Below are positions 4,278-41,088 of a stretch of 46,076 nucleotides of DNA, piece by piece. How positions within the stretch are numbered: the first letter of the stretch is position 1; each line of letters begins with the position of its first letter. The position numbers and the translations under genes are program-made. This stretch comes from an uncultured Spartobacteria bacterium. Lineage in GTDB: Bacteria > Verrucomicrobiota > Verrucomicrobiia > Chthoniobacterales > UBA6821. The notes under the pieces were generated by a model, which saw only the letters and a program-made list of their open reading frames with translations, made no database searches and was not told the origin of the DNA. Location: NCBI GenBank assembly GCA_903823215.1, contig CAIJRY010000204.1, forward strand, positions 1-46,076, given 5' to 3'.

Positions 4278-4342
4278 ACTGAAACCTGAAATGAGGGCGT
4301 AGTCCCTAAAATATCTTCAGGTTTCAAGTCTCAAGTTTCATC
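4278..4342. repeat. Inverted pair of heptamer arrays
   Basis: ACTGAAA CCTGAAA (4278-4291) faces CTTCAGG TTTCAAG TCTCAAG TTTCATC (4315-4342). TGAAACCTGAA/TTCAGGTTTCA is a perfect 11-bp inverted repeat. Confidence 0.75.
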
Positions 4343-4355
4343 CTTCTCTGCCGTC

Positions 4356-5231
4356 TCAGTTTCCCTTGGCTCCGATGCTTCGACGCAGTGCATCGCCAAG
4401 ATTATAGAGAGCAAGCAGTGTGGTGAGCAGGGCGAGTGAGGGAAAAAGAAGGAGCCACCAGGCACCGCGTAGTGGGTTGATCGAGGCGGCCCCCTCAGAG
4501 AGGAGTGACCCCCAGCTGGATTGGGGAGCCTGCACGCCGAGCCCAAGAAAGCTTAGAAAGGCCTCGTCAATGATGACCGATGGAATGGCAAGAGTAAGAT
4601 AGACGAGGACGATACCGGCCAGATTGGGAAGCAAGTGTCGCCAGAGAATCGTCCAGTATCCTTCACCCAAGACTCGTGCTGCCGCGACATAGGATCGCTC
4701 TCTCAGCGTCAGGGTCTGGCCGCGCACGATCCGCGCCATGGTCAGCCATTCGATGACTCCAAGCGAGAGGATGAGGATGACCAGGCGGGAAGATCCGACG
4801 AGCCAGTCCCATCCATGGGCACTTGCAGTCAGTTGAAGGCGTTCATTGAACGAATTGATAAAGATGAGAATGAAGATCAGTCGTGGCACGGAGTAGAGGA
4901 TATCGACTACTCTCATCATTCCCTGATCAATACCCATGCTCGCCGACCCGGCAACCAATCCGTACGAAGTGCCGATTAAGAGGCTGATCGCCGCACCGCA
5001 GATGCCGACAAGCAATGAGATGCGCCCCCCCTCAAGGATGCGAAAGAGGAGATCGCGACCATTCAGATCAGTGCCGCAGAGATGTGCCAGGCTGGGAGGC
5101 GCATAGGTCATTGATCCGGGAAGAGCATAGGAGGGCGGAAATAAGAAGGGGCCGATAATGACGGCAAGAACCATGACTGAAAGAGCCAGGAAAGGGATGC
5201 GGGACTTCTTTGGCAAAGAGAAGCTCATCAC
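4356..5231 (-). CDS. oppC: Oligopeptide/dipeptide ABC transporter permease (OppC-like)
   Basis: HLCGTDLNGRDLL, GRISLLVG, ARIVRGQTL, EAA-like loop (YVAAARVLG), LSFLGLG; overlaps oppB by 4 bp. Confidence 0.88.
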   Translation of the reverse strand: MMSFSLPKKSRIPFLALSVMVLAVIIGPFLFPPSYALPGSMTYAPPSLAHLCGTDLNGRDLLFRILEGGRISLLVGICGAAISLLIGTSYGLVAGSASMGIDQGMMRVVDILYSVPRLIFILIFINSFNERLQLTASAHGWDWLVGSSRLVILILSLGVIEWLTMARIVRGQTLTLRERSYVAAARVLGEGYWTILWRHLLPNLAGIVLVYLTLAIPSVIIDEAFLSFLGLGVQAPQSSWGSLLSEGAASINPLRGAWWLLLFPSLALLTTLLALYNLGDALRRSIGAKGN

Positions 5232-6133
5232 GACTTGATCCTCCGATCCAGCAAACGGTAGGAAAGATCAACGATGAGATTGAAAATCATCAGTAGCATG
5301 CAATAGACGATCACCACTCCCCCGAGCAGAAAGCCGTCGCGGTTGAGGATGGAGTTCACGAAAAATCCTCCGGCTCCGGGGATATGAAAGATTGTTTCGA
5401 CGACAATTGATCCTGTGAGGAGATTCGCAGCCAGCGGGCCAAGGTAGGAAACCACCGGCAGAATGGCGACTCGCAGTGCGTGACCGTAAATGACTCTCCC
5501 CTCTGAGAGACCCTTGGATCGGGCCGTCCTGATGAAATCCTCCACGAGAGTTTCCCTGAGGCTGTCGTGAAGCAAACGCGCGATCACCGCGGCAAATGGA
5601 ATGGCAAGTGTGATGGCAGGAAGAACAAGTTGCTGGAGAGTGCCCCAGCCACCCACCGGCAACCATGCCAGCTTGATGGAAAAAATCAGAATCAGCAGCG
5701 GTCCAAGGACAAACGAGGGGAGTGAAATCGAGACAAGGGTAAGGGCCAGCGCCATGCTCTCGGTGAGGCTTCCCGGGCGAGCCGCAGCAAAGGCTCCGAG
5801 CCAGAGGCCTGCTAAAACGGCCAGAAGGAAGGCTGCGGAACCCAAGGAGAGTGTGACTGGAAGCGTTTGGGCGAGGATTTCATTGACGGAACGATTGCGA
5901 TATTTGGTGGAAAGGCGCAGATCACCATGAAGGAGATCACCCAGATAGCCTGCGTACTGGGTGAGGATGGGACCATCAAGTTTGTATTTGGCCAGAAGCT
6001 GCTTCTCAATTGCGGCGGGAATCTTTCTCTCCGCATCAAACGGACCGCCTGGTGAGAGGCGGATCAGGAAGAAGGTGATGCTGACCACGCAGAACAACAC
6101 GATCAACATCGAGGCAAGGCGACGAAGCATCAT
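5228..6133 (-). CDS. oppB: Oligopeptide ABC transporter permease (OppB-like)
   Basis: PGGPF, DFIRTARSKGL, HALR, GSIVVETIFHIPG. Start moved to ATG 6133 because the upstream extension runs through a tandem repeat. Confidence 0.9.
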   Translation of the reverse strand: MMLRRLASMLIVLFCVVSITFFLIRLSPGGPFDAERKIPAAIEKQLLAKYKLDGPILTQYAGYLGDLLHGDLRLSTKYRNRSVNEILAQTLPVTLSLGSAAFLLAVLAGLWLGAFAAARPGSLTESMALALTLVSISLPSFVLGPLLILIFSIKLAWLPVGGWGTLQQLVLPAITLAIPFAAVIARLLHDSLRETLVEDFIRTARSKGLSEGRVIYGHALRVAILPVVSYLGPLAANLLTGSIVVETIFHIPGAGGFFVNSILNRDGFLLGGVVIVYCMLLMIFNLIVDLSYRLLDRRIKS

Positions 6134-6140
6134 GCCAAAG

Positions 6141-6168
6141 GATGAAGGATGAAGGATCAAGGATGAAA
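6141..6168. repeat. Heptamer tandem array (GATGAAG x4, degenerate)
   Basis: GATGAAG GATGAAG GATCAAG GATGAAA, directly upstream of the oppB start. Confidence 0.85.
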
Positions 6169-6207
6169 CAAAAATGCACCACTTTCGCTAAGAAAAGTGA
6201 TGCATTT
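6166..6207 (-). terminator. Rho-independent terminator after gap-pgk-tpiA
   Basis: Minus strand AAATGCATCACTTT-TCTTAGCG-AAAGTGGTGCATTT (one G.U pair), followed by TTGTTT. Confidence 0.7.
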
Positions 6208-6261
6208 GGAGAATCACACCAGAACTCCGAATTCGGGATCGTTTATCCCGAGCTAATCTTC

Positions 6262-7044
6262 TTATTCTTCTTCAACGGGCGAGCCTGCGGCCACGATCTT
6301 GGCAAAGCCGCGGGGATCAAGACTGGCCCCACCGACTAGAGCACCATCAATGTCGGGTTGAGACATCAATTCGGCAGCCGTGTCGGCTGTGACACTTCCT
6401 CCGTAGAGGATACGGGCTTTGTCAGCCACTTCGGTTCCGGCAAGTTTGGCGAGCTGTTCGCGGATAAATTGATGGGCCTCCTGAGCTTGGGCGGGAGTAG
6501 CTGTCAATCCGGTGCCGATCGCCCAGACCGGTTCGTAAGCGACGATCACTTCCTCCAGATCCTCCTTGGAGAGTCCGGCAAGGGCACCATGAAGCTGGGT
6601 TTCCAAAACGACCTTTTCCTGACCCGCCTGCCGCTCTTCGAGCGTCTCGCCGATGCAGAGGATGGGACGCAGTTCCGAGGCGATGGCGGCGACAAGCTTG
6701 CGGCGCACGACTTCATCTGTTTCTCCGTAGAGGCGTCGGCGCTCACTATGCCCCACGAGGACATAGCGGACGAAGAGATCGCGAAGCATGGACGCCGAGA
6801 TCTCGCCGGTAAAGGCACCCTTGGCTTCCGCCGAGAGATTCTGTGCGCCGAGTCGGATTTTCTGAGTGCCGCCCAGGATTTCAGAAGCCTTGGAGAGTCC
6901 CGTGAAGGGAGGGATCAAGGCGATGTCAACGCCGTCGATCTCTTCAATCTCCTTGCGAAATGTTTCCAGATAGGGAGCGACCTCCGAGGGGGTCGTGTTC
7001 ATTTTCCAGTTTCCTGCTACGAGTTTTTTGCGAGGTAGAGCCAT
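6262..7044 (-). CDS. tpiA: Triosephosphate isomerase
   Basis: GNWKMN, GHSERR, AYEPVWAIGTG, LYGGSV, LVGGASL. Confidence 0.98.
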   Translation of the reverse strand: MALPRKKLVAGNWKMNTTPSEVAPYLETFRKEIEEIDGVDIALIPPFTGLSKASEILGGTQKIRLGAQNLSAEAKGAFTGEISASMLRDLFVRYVLVGHSERRRLYGETDEVVRRKLVAAIASELRPILCIGETLEERQAGQEKVVLETQLHGALAGLSKEDLEEVIVAYEPVWAIGTGLTATPAQAQEAHQFIREQLAKLAGTEVADKARILYGGSVTADTAAELMSQPDIDGALVGGASLDPRGFAKIVAAGSPVEEE

Positions 7045-7058
7045 GATGAGTTGGTAAG

Positions 7059-8306
7059 TTAGATTTTTTCGTCGAGTGAAGCGACTCCGGGAAGTGTTTT
7101 TCCCTCGAGAAGTTCCAGGGAGGCACCGCCACCGGTGGAAGCATGGGTGACTTTGTCGATCACACCGAATTTTTTAGCTGCTGTTGCCGTATCACCACCA
7201 CCCACAACGGTCGTGGCTCCGCTTGCGGTCGCTGCGGCAATGGCGATGGCCATGGACTTGGTTCCCTCGGCAAACTTGTCGAATTCAAACACACCGGCCG
7301 GCCCGTTCCAGATGATGGTTTTTGATTTGGCGATAACTGCCGCAAAGAGTTCGTTGCTTTTCGGGCCGACATCGAGGCCCTGCCATCCGGAGGGGATCCC
7401 TTCGGCAACGGTGGCCGTACCGGTATTTGCATCGGGTGCGAATTTATCGGCTGTGATGAAATCGACGGGGAGATGGATTTTCACCCCTTTGGACTTCGCC
7501 TTCTCGATCAGTTCGGGAATGATTTCCGCGCCGGCGGGGTCGAAGAGGCTGTCTCCGATTTCCATTCCATCCATGACCTTGCAGAAAGTGTAAGCCATGC
7601 CGCCGCCCACGATGATGTCGTCGGCCTTGTCGAGCAGGTTGCGGATGAGTGGAATTTTATCGGCGATCTTAGCACCGCCAAGAATGGCAAGCAAAGGACG
7701 CTGCGGGTTCTCAATGACTGCGGCAAAAGCGGAGAGTTCCTTCTCGACAAGGAAACCGGCGACCTTATCAGGAAGATCGACACCGGTGACACTCGAGTGC
7801 GCGCGGTGGGATGTGCCGAAAGCATCGTTGACATAGACATCACCGAGATTGCTTAGGCTGGCACGGAAAGCCGCGACTTTCACCGGATCAGCTTTTATGC
7901 TATTTCCATCGGCATCCTTGGACTTGCCCTCTTCCTCGATATGGAAGCGGACATTCTCAAGGAGGACGACTTCACCCGGTTTAAGCGCGGCACAGGTGGC
8001 TTCAACCTCAGGACCGACGCAGTCGCTGAGGAACCTGACCGGCTTTCCGAGGAGTTCCTGAAGTTTTTCGGCAACAGGCTTGAGTGTGTATTTTGGGGTC
8101 ACCTGACCGTTGGGCCTGCCAAGATGGCTGGCCAGAACCACGGAGGCACCATGATCGAGGGCATATTGGATGGTGGGCAATGCGGCCGTAATGCGCTGGG
8201 TGTTGGTGATTGCACCCGTTTGTTTATCCTGGGGCACATTGAAGTCGACGCGGATGAAGACGCGCTTGCCGGCAAGATTGAGGTCTTTGATGGTTTTTTT
8301 GGCCAT
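7059..8306 (-). CDS. pgk: Phosphoglycerate kinase
   Basis: [40 protein letters not shown]. Confidence 0.98.
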
Positions 8307-8346
8307 GAGAATGAGTGATGGTTTCTTTGAAAATGGTTTAAACCGT

Positions 8347-8408
8347 AAAACAAGAAAGCAGGAAAATCAGGAAGTAGAGACTCCTGATTTCCTGATTTTC
8401 TAATTTTT
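8347..8408. repeat. Inverted arrays of an approximately 9-bp unit (AAATCAGGA) between gap and pgk
   Basis: AAAACAAGA AAGCAGGAA AATCAGGAA, then gtagagac, then TCCTGATT TCCTGATTT TCTAATTTT; the arms can pair as a hairpin. Confidence 0.7.
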
Positions 8409-8419
8409 GGATAATGGGA

Positions 8420-9508
<1,089 letters not shown>

Positions 9509-9536
9509 TTAATTTCACGGACACGCCCCGTCAATT

Positions 9537-10085
9537 CTAATCGCCCTGCTCGATGTTTTTTGGAGGCGATCCGTTCAGCAAAAGGGCTTCTTTAATGACT
9601 TTCTCAACGGTTTGCTCATGAGAGAGTCCCGTGGCATCGATTTTCAGATCCGCCGTGCCCGCATAAAGGGGGATGCGTGATTCCAGCAAGTTGAAGAAGG
9701 TGCTGCGTGGATTTTCCACTTCCAGTAGTGGACGTTTACGACTGCGGGATGCGCGTTCAAAGAGAGTTTCTGGTTCCGCGTGAAGCCAGATTACGAGTCC
9801 AAGTTGACGAAAAAGATCACGGTTCAAGGGGTTGAGAACCGCTCCTCCACCCGTGGCCAGGATAATCTTTGAAGAGCCTGCCAGCGACTGGAGTTCCTCA
9901 GTCTCCCTTTTGCGAAATCCATCTTCTCCTTCGGTAGCGAAGATGTCGGAAATACTGTGTTCGGCGCGGGCGGCGATCAACTCGTCGCTATCGAGGAACT
10001 TGTGCCCAAGTCGCAGGGCAATCCGCCTGCCAATGCTGCTTTTCCCGCATCCCATGAATCCGATGAGGATGATGTTGGAGATCAT
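9537..10085 (-). CDS. aroK: Shikimate kinase
   Basis: Walker A GFMGCGKS, DSD, FRKRE, ATGGG, RPLL. Confidence 0.93.
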   Translation of the reverse strand: MISNIILIGFMGCGKSSIGRRIALRLGHKFLDSDELIAARAEHSISDIFATEGEDGFRKRETEELQSLAGSSKIILATGGGAVLNPLNRDLFRQLGLVIWLHAEPETLFERASRSRKRPLLEVENPRSTFFNLLESRIPLYAGTADLKIDATGLSHEQTVEKVIKEALLLNGSPPKNIEQGD

Positions 10086-10100
10086 GGTGTGGAGGGTAAG

Positions 10101-10128
10101 ACTGAAAGCTAAAAGCTAAAAGGTGAAA
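10101..10128. repeat. Heptamer tandem array
   Basis: ACTGAAA GCTAAAA GCTAAAA GGTGAAA, 15 bp upstream of the aroK start. Confidence 0.8.
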
Positions 10129-10177
10129 AGGCGCATGGAGTGATTGGGGAGATAGGTCATACAAGCCATCGTATTGA

Positions 10178-10207
10178 TTGTCTTGCGTGTGATGATCTGA
10201 ATACGAT
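10178..10207 (+). promoter_or_regulatory. Putative sigma70 promoter giving a leaderless purE mRNA
   Basis: TTGTCT-N18-TACGAT-N6-ATG(10214). Confidence 0.5.
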
Positions 10208-10213
10208 GGCGCG

Positions 10214-10750
10214 ATGCCTGCCAAAAAAATGAAAATCACTGCTGTGCCTCTCGTTGGTGTCGTGATGGGGAGCAAAAGCGATTGGGAGACGATGGGTCAT
10301 GCGGTTGCGATTCTGGAAGAGTTTGGAGTTCCCTGCGAATATCGTGTTGTTTCCGCTCACAGGATGCCGGATGCAATGGCTGCCTATGCCAAGGAGGCCG
10401 AGGGGAGGGGATTGCGCGCCATCATTGCCGGAGCAGGTGGCGCCGCCCATCTACCAGGAATGATCGCCGCCCAGACCACCGTGCCCGTGCTTGGTGTACC
10501 GGTGAAAAGCCGGACCATGGAGGGATTTGACTCCTTGCTCTCGATTGTCCAGATGCCCGCCGGAATTCCCGTTGCCTCGTTTGCCATCGGTGAGGCAGGG
10601 GCAAAAAATGCCGCCCTTTTTGCCGTGGCACTTCTTGCCGCCCACGACGAACAGCTCTCCCGTAAGCTCGCCAAATTCCGCAAAACGCAGACAAAGATTG
10701 CTACGGAAAGTAAACTGGAAGCCCCTAAAAAGCTTACCCGTCGACTGTGA
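10214..10750 (+). CDS. purE: N5-CAIR mutase PurE
   Basis: [33 protein letters not shown]. Confidence 0.97.
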
Positions 10751-11757
10751 GTGCCCGGATCGTTTCAGGTGGGGAAGGTGTTGAGGAAGCCGTGGCGATT
10801 CTGCGTCGCGGGGAGGTGGTCGCCCTTCCGACAGAGACCGTCTATGGGCTTGCGGGAGATGCCTTCAATCATCTGGCTGTAGCACGCATTTTTGAGGCAA
10901 AGGGACGCCCCCTTACCGATCCACTGATTGTTCATCTGCCGGAATCCGGATGGCTCGATCGTGTGGCTCTCTTTGAGTCTGCTTCGCAACGCGCCCAAGT
11001 CGATCAAATAGCCGCCGCCTTCTGGCCGGGACCATTAACCCTGATTTTAAAAAAGCATCCCGATTTGCCTGATCTCGTCACAGCAGGGATGCAGGATGTT
11101 GCAGTACGAGTCACAGCACACCCTTTGTTTCGGGAAGTGCTGCGTCAGTTGAATTTTCCATTGGCCGCCCCCAGTGCCAACCGTTTTGGAAAAATCAGTC
11201 CCACGAGTGCTGAAGATGTCCAGAATGAACTTGGTAGTATGATCCCTTTGATACTAGAAGGAGGGCCTTGCGAGCATGGCATGGAATCAACCATTGTGGT
11301 TGTCAAGGGGGGGAATCTGGAGATCCTTCGTCCGGGTCCGATAACCAGGGAACAACTGACTGAATATGGACATGTTGCCCCTCCCTCTGAAGCTGTGAAG
11401 ACACCGGGAAGTCTTCCAAGTCACTATGCCCCCAAAAAAGAACTTCAAATCATAGAGTCAGACATCATGGATTGGATTTCCGCTTCTGGGAGAAAAAATG
11501 CCGCCCTTCTTGCTTTTAGATCCCCAACGCCAGTGGTCATTGAACAATGTACCGCCTTGGAAGTTTTAAGCTGTTCCGGTGATCTTCGTGAGGCAGCAGT
11601 TCATTTTTATGGAGCCTTGAGAAGACTTGATCAGTCTCAATCGGACATCATTTTTGCCGAAGCTCTCCCTGAAGTTGGTATTGGAGTAGCAATCATGGAT
11701 CGAATGCGACGTGCTTCCCATGGGTCAAGGCATGCGTCATTTTCTTCGCATGAGTGA
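10747..11757 (+). CDS. tsaC: L-threonylcarbamoyladenylate synthase (Sua5 type, with C-terminal Sua5 domain)
   Basis: [39 protein letters not shown]; GTGA overlap with purE. Confidence 0.95.
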
Positions 11758-13336
11758 CGATCGCCTCAATACCAAAGCTGCCGGAGTAGTCGCTGGGGCT
11801 GTCATGCTCAGCCGTGTTTTGGGCTTAGCCCGAGAGCTGATCTTTGCCGGACTTTTCGGGGCAGGACGGGGTATGGATGCATTTTTGACGGCCTTCAGGG
11901 CACCGAATCTGCTGCGCGATCTTTTTGCCGAGGGAGCACTCTCAACAGCTTTTGTTACCGTTTTTTCACAACGCATTGCCAAGGAAGGGGATCAATCAGC
12001 CTGGAAACTCGCTGCGAAGATGATGACGCTGACAACAATCTTCATGAGTCTAGTCTCTCTCTTGGGGGTAATTTTTGCAGCTCAGTTCATCGGATTTCTG
12101 GCACCCGGTTTCCCGGCGGAAAAGGCAGCCCTGACCATCGAACTGACGCGGATCATGTATCCTTTTATCCTGATGGTTTCGCTCGCGGCATTGGTCATGG
12201 GAATGCTCAATTCTAGGAATCTCTTCACAGCCCCGGCGTTGGCTTCCAGTTTCTTTAACATCGGATCGATCGCGGGCGGCGTCGCCTTTGGCTGGTGGAT
12301 CGACCCCCACTTCGGTGAAAAGTCCCTGATCGGACTCGCTCTGGGCACCCTTCTCGGAGGACTGCTTCAGTTGGGAGTTCAGATACCATCTCTTTATAAG
12401 GCTGGATTTCGGTTCATGCTGGACTTCAACTGGCGCGATCCCGGGGTGAGGCAGGTGTTGCTCCTGATGCTCCCGGCCGTGATTGCAGCGAGTGCCGTGC
12501 AGGTGAATGTGATGATCAACAGCATCTTTGCATCCTATCTTGGAGATGGTCCTGTAAGCTGGCTCTCCTATGCGTTCCGCCTGATGCAGTTGCCGCTTGG
12601 TGTCTTTGGGGTGGCTGTGGCGACGGTGACTCTGCCGGTAATTTCCCGCGCCTCGGCTCTCGGGGAGATAGGAAGATTCAGCGCGACGCTGGCTCGGGCA
12701 ATGAGGCTTGCAGTCTTTCTCACTTTTCCATCCGCCGTTGGGCTGATCATGCTTGCGCAACCCATTATCGCCCTGATCTATCAGCGGGGAAAATTTCATG
12801 ACGCGGACTCCCTCCACACTGCGGAGGCCCTCCAGTTCTATGCCATCGGGCTTGTGGGATACTCCTGTATCAAGGTGCTGGCTCCGGCCTTCTATGCCAT
12901 CAACCGCAAATGGACTCCGATGACGGTGAGCTTCATTTCCATCGGGCTCAACCTGCTGCTCAACTGGATCTTCATCTTTCAACTTCGGATGGGACATTGC
13001 GGACTGGCGCTATCCACCGCCATCTCGGCGACGGTGAACTTCTCCCTGCTCTATTTGTTTATGATACGGGTTGCAGGCTCGTTGGAATCCCGCGCCATGA
13101 TCAGTACCCTTGTGAAATGCTTCCTGGCCTCCCTCCCGATAGCGGCGGTCGGATGGCTGACTCATCCTTGGCTGGTTTCACTCGGTCACTCGTCGGTTGG
13201 GATGCGTGCCGGGGCCCTGTTTGCGGTGATCACGGCTGCCGTTACTCTTTTTTTGATTTCCAGCTGGTTTCTCAAAATCGAGGGGCTCTCTGAGTTCCTC
13301 GGAGTCATGGCCAGAAAGCTCCGGCTGAAATCCTAG
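11750..13336 (+). CDS. murJ: Lipid II flippase MurJ (MviN)
   Basis: SRVLGLARE, DAF..AFR.PNLLRDLFAEGA, RLMQLPLG; about 14 TMs. Start set at ATG 11750. Confidence 0.95.
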   Translation: MSDDRLNTKAAGVVAGAVMLSRVLGLARELIFAGLFGAGRGMDAFLTAFRAPNLLRDLFAEGALSTAFVTVFSQRIAKEGDQSAWKLAAKMMTLTTIFMSLVSLLGVIFAAQFIGFLAPGFPAEKAALTIELTRIMYPFILMVSLAALVMGMLNSRNLFTAPALASSFFNIGSIAGGVAFGWWIDPHFGEKSLIGLALGTLLGGLLQLGVQIPSLYKAGFRFMLDFNWRDPGVRQVLLLMLPAVIAASAVQVNVMINSIFASYLGDGPVSWLSYAFRLMQLPLGVFGVAVATVTLPVISRASALGEIGRFSATLARAMRLAVFLTFPSAVGLIMLAQPIIALIYQRGKFHDADSLHTAEALQFYAIGLVGYSCIKVLAPAFYAINRKWTPMTVSFISIGLNLLLNWIFIFQLRMGHCGLALSTAISATVNFSLLYLFMIRVAGSLESRAMISTLVKCFLASLPIAAVGWLTHPWLVSLGHSSVGMRAGALFAVITAAVTLFLISSWFLKIEGLSEFLGVMARKLRLKS

Positions 13337-13396
13337 GGAAGCTGACCTCTCAATGCTGAGAGCGCAGCTCGGTTGACTTAACTTACCATGGGTTGG

Positions 13397-15193: not shown

Positions 15194-15197
15194 TGAA

Positions 15198-16055: not shown

Positions 16056-16062
16056 CGCCGGA

Positions 16063-19110: not shown

Positions 19111-19117
19111 GCCGGAG

Positions 19118-19147
19118 AGAGTAATCGGAATGAGCGGATTTGTGCAA
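19118..19147 (-). promoter_or_regulatory. Putative promoter of the RelE-like gene (leaderless-type spacing)
   Basis: Minus strand TTGCAC-N18-TACTCT-N7-GTG(19110). Confidence 0.5.
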
Positions 19148-19180
19148 TGTCTGCAAGAGAACCGATGTGTTTCTTGTTGT

Positions 19181-19801: not shown

Positions 19802-19829
19802 GATGAAACCTGAAACTTGAACCCTGAAG
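19802..19829. repeat. Heptamer tandem array
   Basis: GATGAAA CCTGAAA CTTGAAC CCTGAAG; its reverse complement matches 4315-4342 at 25 of 28 positions. Confidence 0.8.
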
Positions 19830-20482: not shown

Positions 20483-20494
20483 GGGAGAGACAAA

Positions 20495-20572
20495 GCTGAA
20501 AGCTGAAACTTGAAAGCTGAAAGAAGGAGGATCAAAAACACTCAGAGATTTCTGTTTCTGATTTCCTGAGTT
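20495..20572. repeat. Heptamer array plus degenerate TCAGGAAA-type array
   Basis: GCTGAAA GCTGAAA CTTGAAA GCTGAAA (20495-20522) and ATTTCTGTTTCTGATTTCCTGAG (about 20548-20570). Confidence 0.75.
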
Positions 20573-25327: not shown

Positions 25328-25377
25328 TTTCTGACCTCTGACTTTTACCTTTTACATTCCCGACATCTGACTTCTGA
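25328..25377. repeat. Heptamer tandem array
   Basis: TTTCTGA CCTCTGA CTTTTAC CTTTTAC ATTCCCGA CATCTGA CTTCTGA, 10 bp before the trmL start. Confidence 0.75.
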
Positions 25378-31703: not shown

Positions 31704-31737
31704 CGGCTGATCCTATCAAAGTGGGGAGCTAAATCCA

Positions 31738-32865: not shown

Positions 32866-32967
32866 GAGACAGGAGGGTGAGGAAATAGCTTTGTTTTCAG
32901 AAGAGAGACAACCGTCGAAACGCTTGTGATGCTTGTGATGCACAACGATGATGGTATCAGTAATCCA

Positions 32968-33492: not shown

Positions 33493-33546
33493 TAGCATTT
33501 TCTTTCCCCCACCACTCCCGTGAGTTAGCCTGCGGGGTGTTGCTAT

Positions 33547-33618
33547 GGGTTGATAGCTCAATGGTAGAGCAGTACCCTTTTAAGGTATTGGTTCTGGGTT
33601 CGAGTCCCAGTCAACCCA
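33547..33618 (+). tRNA. tRNA-Lys (anticodon UUU), CCA not encoded
   Basis: Acceptor GGGTTGA/TCAACCC, D arm GCTC/GAGC, anticodon arm GTACC-CTTTTAA-GGTAT, T arm CTGGG-TTCGAGT-CCCAG; discriminator A followed by CTT. Confidence 0.96.
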
Positions 33619-33656
33619 CTTGTAGAAGTCCTTCCTTATGGCTATCACTTGAAGCA

Positions 33657-34433
33657 ATGTTGCATTTGATAGGTACTCAGAGTCTTCAGATAATCTCCGG
33701 ATTCGGTGATTTTGCCGTGTTCACTGGTAGGTCGTTGTCATCGGTGGCGCATTCCAGAAGGCTGGGACATCGGGTGATCAGGGCCGTTTATGAACAGGGG
33801 ACTGTCTGTCTGCCCGTGATCCTGATCGTCGGTATTTTCACCGGATTGGTGCTGGGATTGCAGGGGTATCATGTACTAAGCCGCTTTGGTTCCCAAGGAT
33901 TGCTCGGGGCTTTGGTTTCGCTCAGTCTGGTGAGGGAGATGGCTCCCGTGCTGGCTGCCCTGATGCTGGTTGGGCAAGCCGGTTCGGCACTGGCTGCGGA
34001 ACTCGGGATGCAGCGCAGTACGGAACAAATCGTTGCGCTGGAGACCATGGGAGTGAGCAGTCACGGTTATCTGGTCTCTCCTCGGCTGATCGCCTCCCTG
34101 CTGACTTTTCCCGCCCAGACGGCGCTTTTTGTGGTGGTGGGACTCTGGGGGGGGGCTCTCTCAGGATCTCTTCTGCTGGGTGTCGATTCAGGCGTGTACT
34201 GGTCATCAGTGGAACATGCCGTCGAGTTCAGGGATCTGAGGGAGTGTTTTATGAAGGCACTCATCTTCGGGCTTTTATCCATGAGTATCTGTGCATGGCA
34301 GGGATTTCATGCCGATCGCTCCCGTACGGCTACCGGAGCGCGAGGAGTGAGTGCGGCCACGACACGGGCGGTTGTCTATTCCAGCATCATCGTGCTGATA
34401 GCTGATTACATCATCACCTCCTTTTTTGTCTGA
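33657..34433 (+). CDS. mlaE: MlaE family lipid ABC permease
   Basis: GLVLGLQG, REMAPVL, GSALAAELG.....EQI.ALE.MG, PRL, GARGV..ATT.AVV. Start ATG 33657, since the longer ORF overlaps the tRNA. Confidence 0.92.
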   Translation: MLHLIGTQSLQIISGFGDFAVFTGRSLSSVAHSRRLGHRVIRAVYEQGTVCLPVILIVGIFTGLVLGLQGYHVLSRFGSQGLLGALVSLSLVREMAPVLAALMLVGQAGSALAAELGMQRSTEQIVALETMGVSSHGYLVSPRLIASLLTFPAQTALFVVVGLWGGALSGSLLLGVDSGVYWSSVEHAVEFRDLRECFMKALIFGLLSMSICAWQGFHADRSRTATGARGVSAATTRAVVYSSIIVLIADYIITSFFV

Positions 34434-34435
34434 AG

Positions 34436-35233
34436 ATGAGAGTGGCTGACCGGGAGTTCATTATTCAAGTTGAAGGCTTGCGAAAGTCCTTCGACACGCG
34501 TTGCGTCCTTGACGGGATCGATCTGGGGGTGCCACGAGGCAGCCTTTTTACTGTTCTTGGCCCAAGCGGGGCCGGCAAATCCGTGTTTCTCAAGTGTCTT
34601 GCAAATATTCTCCATCCCGATGCCGGCAGGATTAGTTTCGATGGACGACTGCTTACCGCTGCGGACAGCGCCTTGCGCACGGAGTTTCGCAAACGATGCA
34701 GCTTTCTATTTCAAAGCAATGCCCTCTTTGATTCTCTGACTGCATTGGAGAATGTGGCTTTGCCTTTGGAGCAGACCACAAACCTCGGCCTCAGGGAGAT
34801 TCGTGAACGCAGTATGGAAGCCCTGCGTCAACTCGAAATGGATGATTTTCATGAGCGCTATCCCGGTCAACTTTCCGGCGGAATGCAAAAGCGACTTGCG
34901 CTTGCCCGCGCCATTGTGACGCAGCCCGAACTCGTCCTGTTTGATGAACCGACGGCTGGACTTGACCCCATTCGCAGGAATGCAGTGTTCACGATGATTG
35001 CCAAATATCAACGCCAGTTCCATTTTACAGCACTGGTCGTCACTCATGATGTTCCCGAGGCGTTGGTTGCCAGCGATCGGGTTGCCCTGTTGAATCAGGG
35101 AAAAATCTGCTTCGAGGGAACTCCAGCGGAATTTTCCGCATCAGTTCAGCCGGTTGTGTGTGGTTTTCGTGACAGCGCGGAGGCTCTCAGCAATTCTATT
35201 GACGCAATCCGCCAAACAAACTTCACCATGTGA
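34436..35233 (+). CDS. mlaF: MlaF family ABC ATP-binding protein
   Basis: GPSGAGKS, FQSNALFDSL, LSGGMQKR.ALARA, DEPTAGLDP. Confidence 0.92.
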   Translation: MRVADREFIIQVEGLRKSFDTRCVLDGIDLGVPRGSLFTVLGPSGAGKSVFLKCLANILHPDAGRISFDGRLLTAADSALRTEFRKRCSFLFQSNALFDSLTALENVALPLEQTTNLGLREIRERSMEALRQLEMDDFHERYPGQLSGGMQKRLALARAIVTQPELVLFDEPTAGLDPIRRNAVFTMIAKYQRQFHFTALVVTHDVPEALVASDRVALLNQGKICFEGTPAEFSASVQPVVCGFRDSAEALSNSIDAIRQTNFTM

Positions 35234-35240
35234 TTATTTT

Positions 35241-35732
35241 ATGAAAAATACCAAACTCGAACTTTCGGTAGGCGTCTTTGTGTTGCTTGGATTGGCTGCG
35301 CTTGCCTACCTGACGATCAAGCTGGGCACAGGTTCCATGGTCAGCGGCAATTCTTATCTGATCGAATCCCGATTTGCCAATGCGGGTGGTATTCATCCCG
35401 GATGCAGTGTGCTGCTCTCCGGCGTCTCGGTGGGAAGGGTCGAGAGTGTCAGGATGGATCCATCGGATTACAGCGCCATAGCAACCCTCCGTCTGACTTC
35501 AATCCTTCATCTGCCCACGGATTCCATGGCTTCCGTCAAGACTTCCGGGTTGATCGGTGACAAGTATATTGCTCTCTCTCCAGGAGCAGATAGCACCTTT
35601 ATTCAGCCCGGAGCAAGAATCACCATGACGGAATCCGCAGTCGATCTGGAGTCGCTAATTGGAAAAATGGCGTTCGGATCCATTGACAAAGACAAGGAAA
35701 CCAAGGAAAAGAAAAGCCTGCCTTCGCCATGA
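35241..35732 (+). CDS. mlaD: MlaD (MCE domain) protein
   Basis: ELSVGVFV TM, GVSVGRV, TSGLIGDKYI.LSPG, DLE.LIGK. Confidence 0.93.
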   Translation: MKNTKLELSVGVFVLLGLAALAYLTIKLGTGSMVSGNSYLIESRFANAGGIHPGCSVLLSGVSVGRVESVRMDPSDYSAIATLRLTSILHLPTDSMASVKTSGLIGDKYIALSPGADSTFIQPGARITMTESAVDLESLIGKMAFGSIDKDKETKEKKSLPSP

Positions 35733-36316
35733 TGAAACGACAGCTTCCTCTTCTAGTATTGGTTTTCTGCCTATTCTCACGGGGTGCTTTGATTGCCTCC
35801 ACCGATGAGGCTGAGAAGCGTCTTAAGACCGCCGTCAACCAAGTCACTGAAATCGCAGCGCACGCGCCGGATCGCAATGCCTTGGCAACAGGGGTAAAAC
35901 CGACACTGCAAAACATACTCAGTTTCGAAACCATGACCCGTCGTGCCGTCGGTCCGGGATGGCGTCAGTTCACACCGGAGCAGCAAAAGGAAGCCATCGG
36001 TCTTTTTACGACGCTGATCATCCGTACCTATACCGCAAAATTTACTCCCGGCGAACTTCCCTCGGTTACTTTCAAGGCAGCCTCATCTCCGGCACCTGGT
36101 CGCGTCGAGATCCCGACAACTAGTTCTTACAAGGGAAGTCACTACGATGTCGTTTACCGTCTTGATGAGTCTGACGGCTGGCGCATCACGGATGTCGTGA
36201 TCGAGGGGGTGAGCATGATCGCCAACTACAGGACGCAGTTTGATGCCGAGTTCAAGCAGGGCGGGGCGGAAGCTGTGATCAAGGCACTCAACCGTTCACT
36301 GGCTACCTCAAAATGA
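35729..36316 (+). CDS. mlaC: MlaC/Ttg2D periplasmic lipid-binding protein
   Basis: Signal peptide; W...T.EQ, YRL, WRITDVVIEGVSM..NYR.QF. Confidence 0.9.
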   Translation: MMKRQLPLLVLVFCLFSRGALIASTDEAEKRLKTAVNQVTEIAAHAPDRNALATGVKPTLQNILSFETMTRRAVGPGWRQFTPEQQKEAIGLFTTLIIRTYTAKFTPGELPSVTFKAASSPAPGRVEIPTTSSYKGSHYDVVYRLDESDGWRITDVVIEGVSMIANYRTQFDAEFKQGGAEAVIKALNRSLATSK

Positions 36317-37125
36317 AAATCAATCCTATTATCGTGGTATGCCTTTTCATGATGGCAGCCCAAAGTGCCATCCATGCATCCGATGCGGAGAAAACCGCTG
36401 CGGTCACAGTGGTGAAAAAAGCAAATTCACCCAGGGTCAAATCTCATGATGGCAAGTCGGTTCGCCTTCCCGATGACGATCTGAATGACGAGTATGGTCG
36501 CGCTGCTTCTGTTCCTGATCCGATCGAGCCGCTGAACAGGGGAACTTTCTGGGTGAATCATCAAATCTACAGATATATCTTCCGTCCTGTTTCCAGGGCC
36601 TATGATACCGTGGTCCCTTCCGTGGTGAGGAAGGGAGTCTTCAATGTTTTTGACAATCTGGAGTTCCCGAAGCGGTTCGTGAATGATCTCTTGCAGTGGA
36701 AGCTGAAGAGCGCGGGACAGGAGTCCGAAAAATTTATGGTCAATACCGTCGCGGGTGTGGGGGGGGTCATGAAAGTTTCGGATCGTATTCCCGCACTGGC
36801 CGATCTGCCCCGTCCCGATACGGGACAGACCTTTGCCAAATGGGGCATCGGTCATGGAGCCTATGTCGTACTCCCTATTTTTGGCCCAAGAAGCGCACGA
36901 GATACGGTTGGTTTGGCGGGAGACATCGCTCTGAGCCCGGTCTTTTGGGTGTCGATCTGGTTCCCTGCGGTTGTTTGGATGCCTGCCGTGACGACGCCTG
37001 ATTCGGTACGCACCTTGCACGACAGACTCGGTGCTTACGATGCTGTCACAGAGAACACACTCGATCGTTATCTGGCAGCCCGGAGTTCCTATATCCAGAA
37101 CCGCAGCAAGGCAGCGTCGAAGTAA
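36313..37125 (+). CDS. mlaA: MlaA/VacJ family protein
   Basis: DPIEPLNR, NL, NT..G.GG, DTGQTFAKWG.G.G.Y.VLP.FGP...RD, final Y...R..Y.Q.R. Confidence 0.88.
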   Translation: MKINPIIVVCLFMMAAQSAIHASDAEKTAAVTVVKKANSPRVKSHDGKSVRLPDDDLNDEYGRAASVPDPIEPLNRGTFWVNHQIYRYIFRPVSRAYDTVVPSVVRKGVFNVFDNLEFPKRFVNDLLQWKLKSAGQESEKFMVNTVAGVGGVMKVSDRIPALADLPRPDTGQTFAKWGIGHGAYVVLPIFGPRSARDTVGLAGDIALSPVFWVSIWFPAVVWMPAVTTPDSVRTLHDRLGAYDAVTENTLDRYLAARSSYIQNRSKAASK

Positions 37126-37230
37126 TTTTTCCGTGCGGGTAGGTAGTTGCCGCATAAGGTTGAGGAGAGTCGGTCTGAGAATTTCCAACGGTTGATAGTG
37201 TTATCCGGACTCTCGGAGAGATGCTATTAT

Positions 37231-37396
37231 TAGAGCGGTTTAAGCAATCCTATAGCCATTCGTTGACGGTGGCATAGGGCCGTTTGGCGGCGTCGCGTTC
37301 GGGCTAGCGCGACTACAGTCGCTTTCGCTTGCTCCTTGCCATCCGACCACATGGCACTCGCAAATTGATGGCCACACTATTACTTAAAACGCTCTA
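37231..37396. mobile_element. 166-bp imperfect palindromic element (MITE/REP-like)
   Basis: Ends TAGAGCGGTTTAAG...CTTAAAACGCTCTA; the outer 29 bp match 23/29. Central palindrome GCGACT-AC-AGTCGC; TA at both termini. Confidence 0.65.
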
Positions 37397-37807
37397 GTCC
37401 TGCTTGAACTTCCCGTGTCCTTCCTTCTTGAGTTGGCCAAGCTTGCCAAGAAGGGACTTTGCATTGTCATACTGACCTGCTTTCACAGCTTCCTCGATCT
37501 GGCCATAGGTGTCCGAGAGCTTCTGTATCTGGGCCTTATAAGCAGCCAGAAACGGTGCCTGATCAGCCTGCGGCACGGTGGCGGTCTTGCGTGGTTGGAG
37601 ATTCTGGGAATCGAGAGCAGCTTTTCTGAGGGACTCAATCAGTGTCACTGTCGACTGCTGCCTGCTCGGATCATTCACTTGCATGGAGAGCTGCTTAGTA
37701 CCTTTTGCAAGAATCTGCATCTGCTTTTCCAGCGGAGAGTCCTCAGCATGGAGAACAGATAAGAGAGGGATGATGACGGCAAGTGCGAGAATAGACTGTA
37801 ATTTCAT
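37394..37807 (-). CDS. Soluble periplasmic cytochrome b562-like four-helix protein
   Basis: Signal peptide (..VLHA). N-terminal LEKQM and C-terminal LKKEGHGKFK match the Met/His heme-ligand layout of cytochrome b562; no CxxCH. Confidence 0.65.
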   Translation of the reverse strand: MKLQSILALAVIIPLLSVLHAEDSPLEKQMQILAKGTKQLSMQVNDPSRQQSTVTLIESLRKAALDSQNLQPRKTATVPQADQAPFLAAYKAQIQKLSDTYGQIEEAVKAGQYDNAKSLLGKLGQLKKEGHGKFKQD

Positions 37808-37828
37808 GTAAGACGGGGTGGGTATAAA

Positions 37829-40381
37829 TTATCCGACGACCACGATATTTACGAGACGCCCCAGAACAACAACTACTTTTTTGATCTCTTTGCCTTCCAG
37901 ATGAGCGGCAACCGAGGGGTTGGAAAAAATTGCTTTTTCAACGGTCTCCTTATCGGCGGAAACGGAAACAGTAATGTGCTCACGAACCTTTCCATTGATC
38001 TGCACTGCATAGGAGATCTCGTCCACAGTGAGATATTCCTCATTCCACTGAGGCCATTGAGATTGGGAAGCGAGTCCATCGAAGCCAGAAAACTTCGTGC
38101 TCAAGCGAGACCAAAGTTCTTCTGTTAGGTGAGGGGCAAAGGGGCTGAGTAGAGGTAGAAAGAGTCGCAGCGCTTCGAGAGGGCGGGGCTTGGCAGTGGT
38201 GAATTCATTGGTGCAGATCATCATCTGGGAGATGGCGGTATTGAAGGAGAGTGACTCGATGTCGTGAGTGACTTTCTTGATCGTGGCATGAAGCATGCGC
38301 CGCTGAGCATTGGTAAGTTCCTGTTCGGCCAGATCCTCTGAGAGGATGTAGTTGCCCTCATGATTCTCTGTCATGGCGAGACGCCAGACACGGGCAAGAA
38401 AACGGTAAACGCCCTCGACGCCCGTGGTACTCCAAGGTTTGCCATGTTCCAGCGGTCCCATGAACATTTCGTAGAGCCGCAGGGAATCCGCCCCGTATTC
38501 GGCGATAACCTCATCGGGGTTGACCACATTCCCACGGCTTTTGGACATTTTCTGTCCATCGTCACCGAGGATCATTCCTTGGTTCACGAGTCTCTGGAAT
38601 GGCTCGGGTGTGGTCAGATGGCCGAGATCAAAAAGCACCTTATGCCAGAAGCGGGCATACAAAAGATGGAGCACGGCGTGTTCGGTTCCCCCGACATACA
38701 AATCAACACCTCCGGTAGTCCCCTGACTTCCCATCCAATATTGCTCGGCCTCGGCGCTGATGAAGCGATCCTTGTTCTTGGGATCGCAGAAGCGAAGGTA
38801 GTACCAGCAGGAACCAGCCCATTGGGGCATGGTATTGAGCTCGCGTTGTGCAGTCTCGGCATAGCGCACCCATTCGCTTGCCTTGGAAAGAGGTGGTTCC
38901 GCAGTACCCGTTGGTTTGAAATCTTCCATTTCTGGTGGCTCCACAGGGAGTTCCTCATGGGAAAGAGCCCGGTGGGAACCATTCTCCCAAACGATAGGGA
39001 AGGGTTCCCCCCAGTAACGCTGACGGGAGAAAAGCCAGTCACGCAGCTTGTACGAAATCGTACCTTGCCCGAGACCCTTTTCCTCAAGCCATGTGATGAT
39101 TTTTGCTTTGGCTTCTAGTGTTTGGAGGCCGTTGAGAAAACCGGAGTTGACCGCGATTCCTTCGCCGCAAAAACATCCCTCGAATGCATCAGCTGTCGTG
39201 ACAACGGGAATGATCGGCAGATCAAAGGCCACAGCAAATTCATGATCCCTCTCGTCGTGGGCTGGAACGGCCATGATGGCCCCGGTGCCGTAACCGGTGA
39301 GGACATAATCGGCGATCCAGATTGGGATCCTTTCATGATTCACCGGATTCATGGCGTAGGCACCGGTAAAGACACCGCTCTTTTCCTTCGCGAGATCAGT
39401 GCGCTCCAGATCGCTCTTGGAAGAGCAGGCTTTCTTGTAGCTGGTAACAGCCTTCAGTTGTCCGGTATTGGTGATGGCCTCCACAAGCGGATGTTCGGGA
39501 GCCAGAACCAAGTAAGTGGCACCGAAGAGTGTGTCAGGCCGTGTGGTGAAGACAGTGACAGAGGCATCTACCCCCTCGATCTCAAATCGAACCTCCGCCC
39601 CTTCGCTGCGGCCAATCCAGTTACGCTGGAGGAGTTTGATCGACTCCGGCCATTCGAGGCCATCGAGATCGGCGATCAACCGTTCTGCATAGGAGGTGAT
39701 ACGTAGCATCCATTGGCGCATCGGACGACGCTCCACGGGGAATCCTCCGACTTCACTTTTCCCATCAACGACTTCCTCATTTGCCAGCACGGTGCCGAGC
39801 TCCGGGCACCAGTTCACCGGTTTGTTAGAAACATAAGCGAGACGGACGCTGTCAGGATCCGATCCAGTGTAGGTCGAGATCGGCTCTGCCTTGTTTGTGA
39901 GCGGGTTCACCCAGGCATTGTAAAGCTGGAGAAAGATCCACTGCGTCCATTTGAAATACTCGGGATCGGTCGTGCTGATTTCGCGGGACCAGTCGTAGCT
40001 GAAGCCGAGCGACTGAAGCTGAGCGCGGAAGTTGTTGATATTGCGCTCGGTGGTGATGCGCGGATGCTGGCCGGTCTTGATCGCATACTGCTCGGCGGGA
40101 AGACCAAAGGCATCCCAGCCCATCGGATGCAGCACATTGTCACCCTTGAGGCGGTGATAACGGGCAAGGATATCGGTGGCGGTGTATCCCTCAACATGGC
40201 CGACATGCAGACCGTCACCACTCGGATAAGGAAACATATCGAGCACGAAATATTTCTTCGCCCCAGGCCGGAAATCAGGATCTCCGGGATTGGACGCACG
40301 GAAGACTTGTGTGCCGACCCAATGCTGCTGCCAGCGGGGTTCAAATTCAGGGAAAGGATAGTGCTTGCGGGTAAGGGACAT
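37829..40381 (-). CDS. leuS: Leucine--tRNA ligase
   Basis: [29 protein letters not shown] editing domain, SRQRYWG, KMSKS. Start ATG 40381. Confidence 0.97.
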
Positions 40382-40403
40382 CTGGTTCGAAGTGGAGTCC
40401 TCT

Positions 40404-41042
40404 ATGGAAAACGAAAACGACGATTTCGCCAAGTCGCTGACGACAATTCTTTTGGCCACCCGCAACAGGCACAAGACCCGCGAGATTCAGACCATGCTCA
40501 GTGATGGGGTAAAGGTAGTTGATCTCACTCAATATAACCATCTTCCTGAAATCGAGGAAACGGGGGTGACCTTTGAAGAAAACTCCAAGCTCAAGGCCGA
40601 GGGGATTTCCCTCCATGTTCCCGGGATCGTCCTAGCCGATGACTCTGGTCTGGAAGTGGATGCAATAGGCAAAGAACCGGGTGTCTACTCTGCTCGCTAC
40701 GCCGCCTCAAGTTTTTCAGGTATCGGCAGTATTGATGTAGCCAATACAGCACTTGTTCTGAAAAAAATGGTCGATGTTCCCTATGAGCAACGCACGGCAC
40801 GATTCCGCTGCGTTCTGGCTGTCGCCGAGAGGGGGAAAACGCTTGCCGTCTTCGATGGAACCGTAGAGGGAATTCTGGCCACGGAAGTCAAAGGCTCAGG
40901 CGGCTTCGGTTATGACCCGATCTTCATGCCAATCGGTTATACCGAAACCTTTGGTGAACTTTCCGCAGAGATCAAACATACCATGAGCCACCGCAGCAGA
41001 GCACTGGCTCAGTTCAAGATATGGTGGATGAGGAGGAAATAG
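40404..41042 (+). CDS. rdgB: dITP/XTP pyrophosphatase (RdgB/HAM1)
   Basis: [42 protein letters not shown]. Exact start uncertain. Confidence 0.93.
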
Positions 41043-41060
41043 AGGGGTGGCAGTGATAAT

Positions 41061-41088
41061 GCTGAGACTTGAAAGCTGAAATCTGAAA
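41061..41088. repeat. Heptamer tandem array
   Basis: GCTGAGA CTTGAAA GCTGAAA TCTGAAA; the first 21 nt match 20502-20522 at 20 of 21 positions. Confidence 0.8.

Follow-up and report, generated by a model that had tools for sequence, protein, structure and literature searches.

Short tandem arrays of degenerate 7-nt units lie in the intergenic spacers of a 46,076-nt contig of an uncultured Spartobacteria bacterium (CAIJRY010000204.1; this whole stretch is called the window below), and we report here that these heptamer arrays are probably the arms of hairpin cassettes that fill the stop-to-start gaps between genes. The closest described relatives of such cassettes are the intervening sequences (IVSs) of 23S rRNA genes that bear an open reading frame (ORF), as in Coxiella burnetii and Leptospira. 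These intervening sequences are 428–444 nt long, have a 28-bp terminal stem that is cut by RNase III with an S23p ORF in its loop, and are selfish elements without a known way of moving (PMC4990558). The cassettes described here resemble them in size (~430–500 nt), in the PF05635 (S23p) four-helix-bundle ORF in the loop of a terminal-inverted-repeat stem, in a sporadic distribution that suggests horizontal spread, and in having no transposase (PMC4990558). They differ in lying between the protein genes of operons rather than in 23S helix 25 or 45, in having arms made of tandem 7–9-nt units, in having a second cargo family (GxxExxY), and in that cargo-less copies outnumber full ones.

The arrays themselves have counterparts among known heptamer repeats. 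Like the TAACTGA repeats of Beggiatoaceae, some Cyanobacteria and Bacteroidetes, they consist of contiguous 7-nt units that are mostly intergenic, in forward orientation and no more than a few nt from starts that lack ribosome-binding sites (MacGregor 2015, PMC4679880); TAACTGA repeats comprise two to six units and, like the arrays here, have a patchy taxonomic spread (PMC4679880). The units here are different (TTTCAGN, CTTCATC, TCTGACY and others), and the TAACTGA repeats include one inverted set vs 169 direct ones, have no link to cargo genes and have been proposed to be translational regulators (PMC4679880). The GGGAATC repeats of Xanthomonas and GGGGAYT repeats of Nostoc show the same polarity as the arrays here, the coding strand being G-rich within 50 bp past stops and C-rich within 50 bp before starts; 70–75 convergent pairs per genome are potential stem-loops, and repeat type is kept between species while length varies (Rehm 2015, PMC4692102). 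The available text of that paper makes no mention of S23p or intervening-sequence genes. Unlike those quadruplex-forming units, TTTCAGN cannot form quadruplexes, the window units having 0–2 G and no GGG. Heptanucleotide long simple-sequence repeats (SSRs) share with the arrays the dominant period of 7, the intergenic position and the patchiness across lineages (Mrazek 2007, per PMC4679880). Unlike slippage-type SSRs, the arrays here have defined ends, complementary partners and cargo-bearing relatives.

Cyanobacterial short tandemly repeated repetitive (STRR) heptamers, also of period 7, intergenic and patchy, are treated as slippage products. Repetitive extragenic palindromic (REP) sequences, REPINs and MITEs (miniature inverted-repeat transposable elements) are, like the elements here, dispersed intergenic hairpins with many non-autonomous copies. 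Unlike REP/REPIN elements, those described here have arms made of tandem repeats and enclose a gene other than a transposase, and no Y1 transposase was found in the source genome; of the traits of a MITE, inverted arms are present. Within a literature coverage that stops at subscription journals, we found no paper that links heptamer repeats to PF05635 or GxxExxY genes: what was available on TIGR02436, PF05635 or S23 proteins, including PMC11637426, does not mention repeat arms, and the accessible texts on GxxExxY, TIGR04256 or PF13366, including PMC8934634, yielded nothing relevant.

Cassettes with a small gene between complementary arms

The window is contig C204 of the source genome (G000), a 260-contig draft of 2.31 Mb with 53% G+C and a completeness of 95.9%, whose gene set comes from our own ORF, codon and start model (2,053 genes, 88% coding, with 12% of the genome intergenic). 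Gene starts outside the window are approximate under this model, and so are the array-to-start gaps there. G000 was compared with 22 congeners; the 23 genomes are draft assemblies, related to one another and so not independent. G000 and G002 are the two closest, and the proteins that flank the spacers compared between them are 81–100% identical.

Three parts make up a full cassette: a 5′ arm, rich in G, with three to six tandem units of 7–9 nt; a small gene as cargo; and a 3′ arm that is rich in C and complementary to the first. This cargo is either a PF05635/TIGR02436 four-helix bundle (the 23S IVS family, related to bAvd of diversity-generating retroelements) or a TIGR04256 GxxExxY protein. 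TIGR02436 has 85 matches in 20 of the 23 genomes, and 83 cassettes were taken from these: 80 of the 82 matches outside G000 (two short fragments were left out) and three from G000. Flanks of at least 100 nt on both sides are available for 81 cassettes, and 42 of these reach an ungapped complementarity score of at least 12, as do 15 of 404 mismatched pairs but 0 of 81 controls in direct orientation; when the threshold is lowered to 10, the figures are 54/81, 36/404 and 4/81. Periodicity at lag 7 (at least 15/21 self-matches) marks at least one flank in 38 of the 81. Lag 8 is found upstream in 12 cases and downstream in 7, whereas none of the lags 5, 6, 9 and 10 exceeds 3 cases on either side. 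When whole cassettes are folded, the true flanks form a median of 28 pairs with each other vs 13 with a swapped 3′ flank; the swap is a weak control, since a purine arm will also pair with a pyrimidine arm to which it is unrelated.

The best-paired arm segment has a median length of 23 nt (range 12 to 70). Among the 51 well-paired cassettes, G exceeds C in the 5′ arm of 50 and C exceeds G in none, and the arm is purine-rich in 46. Both arms are tandem 7–9-nt units, each cassette spans the stop-to-start gap between genes, and the cargo gene begins directly after the purine arm. The ORF thus sits between two half-arms with no single complete hairpin behind it, unlike an integron gene cassette with its attC site. 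More than a dozen unrelated unit sequences occur across the genus, and the arms remain complementary while they diverge. Three four-helix-bundle genes belong to G000 itself, with arms present in all three and a different unit family in each:

C40, positions 620-940: four-helix-bundle gene copy with arms
C45, positions 9509-9820: four-helix-bundle gene copy with arms
C145, positions 2408-2728: four-helix-bundle gene copy with arms

Their proteins match PF05635 with E = 5.5e-25 to 2.7e-29 (one also matches bAvd), and all three genes sit between protein genes, none in 23S rRNA. The nearest solved structure to the cargo is 2GSC (E = 1.2e-13), a protein described as a toroidal homopentamer (PMC4990558). 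We also note that 2GSC, an S23p-family structure, comes from Xanthomonas campestris, a member of a genus that also bears GGGAATC arrays, which may be a coincidence, and that one contig of a congener (G008:C76; L083, L105 and L108) has three four-helix-bundle genes or fragments within 17 kb, one of them beside ten or more copies of GAGTGAG.

The second cargo family is present throughout, with 68 TIGR04256 matches in 23 of 23 genomes; we take the GxxExxY protein to have a PD-(D/E)XK nuclease fold. Complementarity of at least 12 is found in 18 of the 30 loci examined, compared with 14 of 145 mismatched pairs, and these arms have periods of 7 to 9 (for example GCGCAGAG, CACGAAA and CATGAAGAG). The single GxxExxY gene of G000 (C6:1574-1960, TIGR04256, E = 8e-33) lies directly behind a purine array; it and an 84-aa ORF of no known family are the ORFs near solitary purine arrays in this genome. 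Between paired G000 arrays no other cargo was found, only short hairpins and the C145 cassette already listed. In several congeners the oppC-cca and tpiA-oppB spacers are filled by cargo-less hairpins with GCGCAGAG-type arms. Both cargo families had been named in the earlier note on this DNA as genes to look for between such arms, and both are indeed found with them across the genus.

The window arrays and their likeness to cassette arms

The genes around the window arrays were confirmed with NCBIfam as cca, oppC, oppB, tpiA, pgk, gap, aroK, bioD, trmL, rdgB and prfB, as was the histidine-phosphatase-family gene beside bioD; beyond the genus, the closest named relative of this bioD is in a Chthoniobacter assembly (45% identity). 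The arrays, with an additional purine arm and an eighth site that was absent from the earlier note, are as follows.

4278..4292, minus strand: site 1, the shorter, pyrimidine arm (mRNA strand TTTCAGGTTTCAG) of a hairpin without cargo; the predicted cca start (4234) lies ~43 nt downstream
4316..4346, minus strand: site 1, purine (G-rich) arm of the same hairpin, outer end GGATGAAAC; begins 13 nt past the oppC stop
6141..6168, minus strand: site 2, solo pyrimidine array of CTTCATC-type units; 7 nt ahead of the oppB ATG
8355..8407, minus strand: eighth site, hairpin without cargo between gap and pgk, made of the 8-nt unit AATCAGGA and the complementary TCCTGATT
10101..10128, minus strand: site 3, solo pyrimidine array (TTTCACC, TTTTAGC twice, TTTCAGT); 15 nt ahead of the aroK ATG
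19802..19829, minus strand: site 4, solo pyrimidine array ending in TTTCATCC; 21 nt ahead of the phosphatase ATG
20495..20522, minus strand: site 5, solo pyrimidine array (TTTCAGC, TTTCAAG, TTTCAGC, TTTCAGC); 12 nt ahead of the bioD ATG
20547-20570 (arm 20555-20570), minus strand: solo purine arm of CAGGAAAT type (CTCAGGAAATCAGAAACAGAAATC) in the ABC-bioD spacer, just past the upstream stop
25328..25377, plus strand: site 6, pyrimidine array of TCTGACY and TTTTACC units; 10 nt ahead of the trmL ATG
41061..41088, plus strand: site 7, solo purine array (GCTGAGA, CTTGAAA, GCTGAAA, TCTGAAA); 18 nt past the rdgB stop, with a 99-aa ORF 35 nt further on

All seven arrays that had been described are present where they were placed, and two matches between distant copies are exact as given (25/28 for 4315-4342 vs the reverse complement of 19802-19829, and 20/21 for 41061-41081 vs 20502-20522). 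The pyrimidine form does lie 7–21 nt before the starts of oppB, aroK, phosphatase, bioD and trmL, and the purine form does follow the stops of oppC and rdgB. The proposed consensus TTTCAGN holds less widely, and needs correction at site 2 (CTTCATC) and at site 6 (TCTGACY, TTTTACC). Five of the seven sites are assigned a period of 7 by Tandem Repeats Finder (6138-6167, 10105-10122, 19804-19828, 20492-20523 and 41070-41088), and Rfam finds only a tRNA in the window, with no match at the arrays. The inverted repeat claimed for site 1 is borne out: 4278-4292 pairs with 4316-4330 in the minimum-energy fold, the arms lying within 4278-4346, though the overall stability of the 146-nt region is unremarkable (z = -1.42). 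The hairpin at 8355-8407 reads ATTAGAAA, ATCAGGAA, ATCAGGAG, loop, TTCCTGAT, TTTCCTGC. The CAGGAAAT-type purine arm has no complementarity to the TTTCAGC array before bioD, so that the ABC-bioD spacer holds two half sites of different families.

Solo arrays and cassettes have arm sequence in common. We compared the 64 intergenic arrays of G000 (defined below) with the arms of the congeners' four-helix-bundle cassettes by shared 12-mers, with orthologous junctions excluded and polarity matched, and 46 of the 64 share a 12-mer with a cassette arm in matching polarity. When the units of the arrays were permuted, 200 trials yielded 10.2 such arrays on average and never more than 18. The 46 include all the window sites but one, and a 5′ arm is in no case matched by the pyrimidine form. 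The purine arm of site 1 shares 12-mers with cassettes L101 and L103, site 2 with the C28 and C171 clades, and site 6 has one 12-mer in common with the 3′ arm of L063; site 3, before aroK, is the only window site that shares none with any cassette arm. TTTCAGS arrays match the arms of a single clade, L101-L104 (in G015, G013 and G001), whose arms end in TTTCATCC as do many G000 arrays, and the 3′ arm of L103 has nearly the same sequence as sites 1 and 4. GxxExxY arms are matched by only 2 of the 64 arrays, so the window arrays are of the four-helix-bundle arm type; the exception is the period-8 hairpin at 8355-8407, whose units match the arms of GxxExxY cassettes L149-L152.

Genome-wide, the arrays are far commoner than expected by chance, as the earlier note had anticipated. 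A unit weight matrix built from TTTCA-phase runs proved too rigid for other unit families, and therefore self-similarity at lag 7 was used instead; at the looser threshold of at least 15/21 self-matches it finds 64 intergenic arrays in G000, including all seven of the window. Stretches of 28 nt with at least 16/21 lag-7 self-matches number 52, of which 42 fall in the intergenic 12%, compared with ~2 (none intergenic) in local shuffles, an excess of about 25-fold; other lags from 4 to 12 give 1 to 25 stretches, 0 to 9 of them intergenic. A segment-scoring variant gives 24 at lag 7 vs 0.7 in shuffles, and three TTTCA in a row occur 29 times at 7-nt spacing and never at 6- or 8-nt spacing. Matches to three consecutive TTTCANN units number 13 to 75 in 10 of 18 sampled congeners, and 0 to 8 in the other eight. 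Of 12 genomes that belong to the same order but to different families, 11 have 0 to 3 matches, and the remaining one contains long perfect arrays of TTTCAAC that the reversed-pattern control also catches.

Their orientation is not random either, again in agreement with the earlier note. In 35 of the 64 arrays the sense strand carries the pyrimidine form and a predicted start follows within 40 nt (median gap 11 nt), while the purine form precedes a start in three, all A-rich or G/T-rich oddities, and lies within 40 nt past a stop in 14. In about ten G000 spacers the complement of a purine array lies 38 to 206 nt behind it, and TTCATC closes 8 of 30 array runs at the 3′ end and 0 of 30 at the 5′ end. 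Since the first arm is G-rich, a hairpin reads G-rich and then C-rich on both strands, and because of this geometry every neighbouring gene has a purine arm past its stop and a pyrimidine arm before its start; the rule holds for either orientation of a cassette and for co-directional, divergent or convergent neighbours. The start model finds no Shine-Dalgarno signal ahead of predicted G000 starts, with the 24 nt upstream depleted in G and C favoured at -1 and -2. A G-poor arm beside starts agrees with this genome-wide depletion, which may reflect host selection.

Two observations on other window genes belong here. The 99-aa ORF beyond site 7 (41124-41423, plus strand) has a signal-peptide-like start and no Pfam or NCBIfam match, and its G002 counterpart is truncated, a 132-nt spacer there holding the first codons only. 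At the far end of the window (44596-46074, minus strand) lies a GreA with an N-terminal extension of >490 aa that runs off the window end and matches the long GreA-fusion models PRK14720 and PRK06330.

Junctions, movement and turnover

The same few junctions are used repeatedly. Of the 80 congener cassettes, 55 map between two adjacent protein-coding genes of G000, and they do so at only 12 junctions, two of which hold a cassette in G000. The site 5 junction (ABC-bioD) is one of these hot spots. Among the 22 congeners most have a pyrimidine array just before the bioD ATG whose unit differs by species (TTTCAGC; CCTTCAG with CTAACAG; CTTTCGT; TTTCACT with TTTTAAC), and many have an additional purine array just past the stop upstream. 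In G005, G006, G017 and G018 the bioD spacer is 446–587 nt long and contains a 118–132-aa TIGR02436/PF05635 gene between the purine and pyrimidine arrays. The idea that small genes come and go at the window junctions is therefore borne out at bioD, in 4 of 22 congeners, and not at the other six. At the neighbouring bioD-phosphatase junction two congener loci (L010 in G006 and L023 in G013) have genes of 85 aa and 105–110 aa inserted as a pair, which resembles an antitoxin-toxin pair as judged by arrangement alone; the spacer is 721–1016 nt there, followed by a pyrimidine array before the phosphatase start.

In a tree of the cargo proteins (78 rows, with 5 fragments left out) the C85, C145, C45 and C78 junctions each hold two or more clades, C78 in both orientations, and near-identical cargo genes are found at different junctions. 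Arm sequence follows the cargo clade and not the genome. One cassette has moved with its arms: that at the clpB junction of G000 and one that G002 has elsewhere, at another junction, agree at 94% of 424 nt including the arms, and the genes flanking the clpB junction are 90–94% identical between the two genomes. The clpB junction of G002 holds a solo 5′ arm that is identical to that of the G000 cassette up to the cargo ATG, with the gene and the 3′ arm gone, which is just the kind of half site that the earlier note had postulated. No target-site duplication is evident at this junction, the only one at which an occupied and a vacated site were compared. After the solo arm there follow, in G002, a solo CTGAAAS purine arm and a GTCGAGG hairpin; the whole spacer (G002:C21, L166 620-930) is 187 nt long and has the GGTCAGA arm, the CTGAAAS arm and the hairpin piled up. 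The presence of three unit families in one spacer suggests that arms themselves may be insertion targets.

Spacers with arrays also turn over quickly. Within the window their median identity to G002 is 0.53 (n=6) vs 0.82 for the other spacers of at least 25 nt (n=19; one-sided Mann-Whitney p = 0.02). The array family differs between G000 and G002 at the oppC-cca, tpiA-oppB, bioD-phosphatase and trmL junctions; the site 4 counterpart in G002 has a purine arm and a pyrimidine arm of a different unit family, and the site 6 spacer fails to align at all. At bioD the unit number is 4 vs 3, and the rdgB units differ in copy number and order, site 7 being retained with its unit order changed. The eighth-site hairpin is retained as well (spacer identity 0.81). 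Elsewhere in the window, the G002 counterparts of the spacers at 19111-19180 (70 nt) and 32866-32928 (63 nt) have inserts of 1067 nt and 330 nt.

Origin of the arrays and competing explanations

The earlier note had suggested that the arrays mark the empty sites or half sites of cassettes that have inverted heptamer arrays as their ends and gain and lose small cargo genes inside operons, and on the whole the evidence above supports this. Most G000 copies would have lost their cargo or never had one, and would remain as purine-then-pyrimidine hairpins or as single arms. By analogy with the 23S intervening sequences, which are cut by RNase III, a cassette would be co-transcribed with its host operon, its arms would pair into a stem of ~20–45 bp around the cargo, and RNase III would cut this stem, so that the operon would tolerate the insert. 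Movement might occur by recombination between arms at different junctions or by homing through the GxxExxY nuclease. RNA elements that tune processing or Shine-Dalgarno-independent initiation, the other suggestion of that note, may exist as a secondary effect beside the cassettes.

Several results weigh against a cassette origin. Site 5 is the only one of the seven window junctions with cargo in any congener, and the arms there are of another unit family; none of the 22 congeners has a cargo gene at the other six, so that for six of the seven sites shared arm sequence is the single link to cassettes. The background of that 12-mer comparison is noisy, with 10 of 64 arrays matching when units are permuted and 19 of 64 when arrays are reversed, and G000 has ~29 matches to three consecutive TTTCANN units without a four-helix-bundle gene of the matching TTTCAGS clade. 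Swapped-flank folds reach at least 10 pairs in 44 of 77 cases, compared with 66 of 77 for true flanks, and the direct-orientation control for GxxExxY arms scores 12 in 7 of 30. Eight of the ten hot-spot junctions without a cassette in G000 have no lag-7 array there (seven are clean spacers of 0–70 nt and one is 654 nt), and only two, bioD and C78, have arrays; either cassettes are often lost without a footprint or these sites were never occupied in the G000 lineage. No transposase, integrase or target-site duplication was identified, in an analysis that included no search for IntI or a related insertion sequence (IS). Finally, a pyrimidine array directly precedes the oppB start in 19 of 20 congener loci although the units differ (the twentieth locus starts inside oppB), and such near-constancy could mean that selection may hold a retained function there.

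This last point leads to the strongest competitor, in which pyrimidine arrays are working 5′-leader elements, either an unstructured landing pad or a binding array for S1, cold-shock protein (Csp) or CsrA that sets translation without a Shine-Dalgarno sequence. At the outset we gave a 5′-leader or translational-coupling element about an even chance and cassettes next to none, and dropped that reading after the bioD-junction and cassette comparisons in the congeners. The oppB arrays, the median gap of 11 nt, the polarity of 35 to 3 and the G-depleted, Shine-Dalgarno-free starts of G000 all suit it, as do the S1, Csp or CsrA binding proposed for TAACTGA repeats (MacGregor 2015, PMC4679880) and the changes in expression on deletion of heptamer repeats near starts reported in a Nostoc preprint (10.1101/2022.06.06.494920). 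The polarity, however, already follows from a G-rich-first hairpin, there are only 64 intergenic arrays for about 2,050 predicted genes, the units at one junction can be completely different between the two closest genomes, cargo genes start straight after the purine (not the pyrimidine) arm, and eight of ten hot-spot junctions are array-free in G000; we regard a leader function as an unlikely account of the arrays. Polymerase slippage in place on 7-nt units, with cassettes merely residing in repeat-rich spacers, is less likely still. Heptanucleotides are the commonest long SSRs in most prokaryote genomes and a slippage model has been put forward for them (Mrazek 2007, per PMC4679880), and copy number and unit order do vary between G000 and G002 at bioD and rdgB, but against slippage stand a common non-repeat end (TTCATC, at 3′ ends only), 12-mers shared with cassette arms in the correct polarity only, whole arrays exchanged for other unit families between near-identical genomes, a solo arm identical to a cassette arm at the orthologous site, and arms that keep their complementarity while diverging.

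Two further explanations seem highly improbable to us. The hairpins resemble REPINs and MITEs in placement, including their position between convergent or co-directional genes, in their inverted arms and in the many cargo-less vs few gene-bearing copies, and might be moved in trans by a tyrosine (Y1, RAYT) or IS transposase with the small genes as passengers; G000 has no match to PF01797 (Y1 transposase) in a search that is positive in 6 of 14 control genomes, the clpB junction shows no evident target-site duplication, and arm sequence tracks cargo clade rather than genome. Equally doubtful is an action of the arrays on DNA, as heptad sites for a ribbon-helix-helix regulator or as formers of G-quadruplexes or i-motifs. 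Contiguous direct and inverted heptads beside genes recall the operators of the omega repressor of plasmid pSM19035, a ribbon-helix-helix regulator with contiguous heptad sites, but one genus has more than a dozen unrelated units, too many for any one regulator to recognise. Quadruplexes do arise in vitro from GGGAATC repeats, whose polarity relative to genes is also the same (Rehm 2015, PMC4692102), but TTTCAGN units have no G runs.

The arrays are thus best read as arms of hairpin cassettes, and a wider version of this reading can be offered as a tentative possibility that is itself unlikely. The 7–9-nt arrays of cyanobacteria, Xanthomonas, Beggiatoaceae, candidate-phyla bacteria and Verrucomicrobia may be arms and footprints of one cross-phylum class of hairpin cassettes, free-living relatives of IVSs, whose pentameric bAvd-like or PD-(D/E)XK GxxExxY cargo would recognise its own arm units and drive movement via hairpin DNA or RNA without a transposase or integrase.

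Heptamer repeats beside starts have been left unexplained or read as translation signals, as far as the available texts go (PMC4679880, PMC4692102, 10.1101/2022.06.06.494920), and the cassettes offer a concrete origin for this long-noted type of bacterial repeat. The puzzle of these repeats and that of the IVSs join in this genus: the repeats would be arms of IVS-like cassettes in operon spacers, which re-use few junctions, change places among them and, on decay, leave hairpins or single arms behind. If this is general, geometry alone would explain the gene-relative polarity of such repeats, which should then be read as regulators only with caution, and there would be a mobile unit open to testing, with either a small nuclease or a protein related to bAvd of retroelements as its cargo. 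It would also draw attention to spacers with a turnover far above that of their neighbours, a point of importance for annotation and strain typing.

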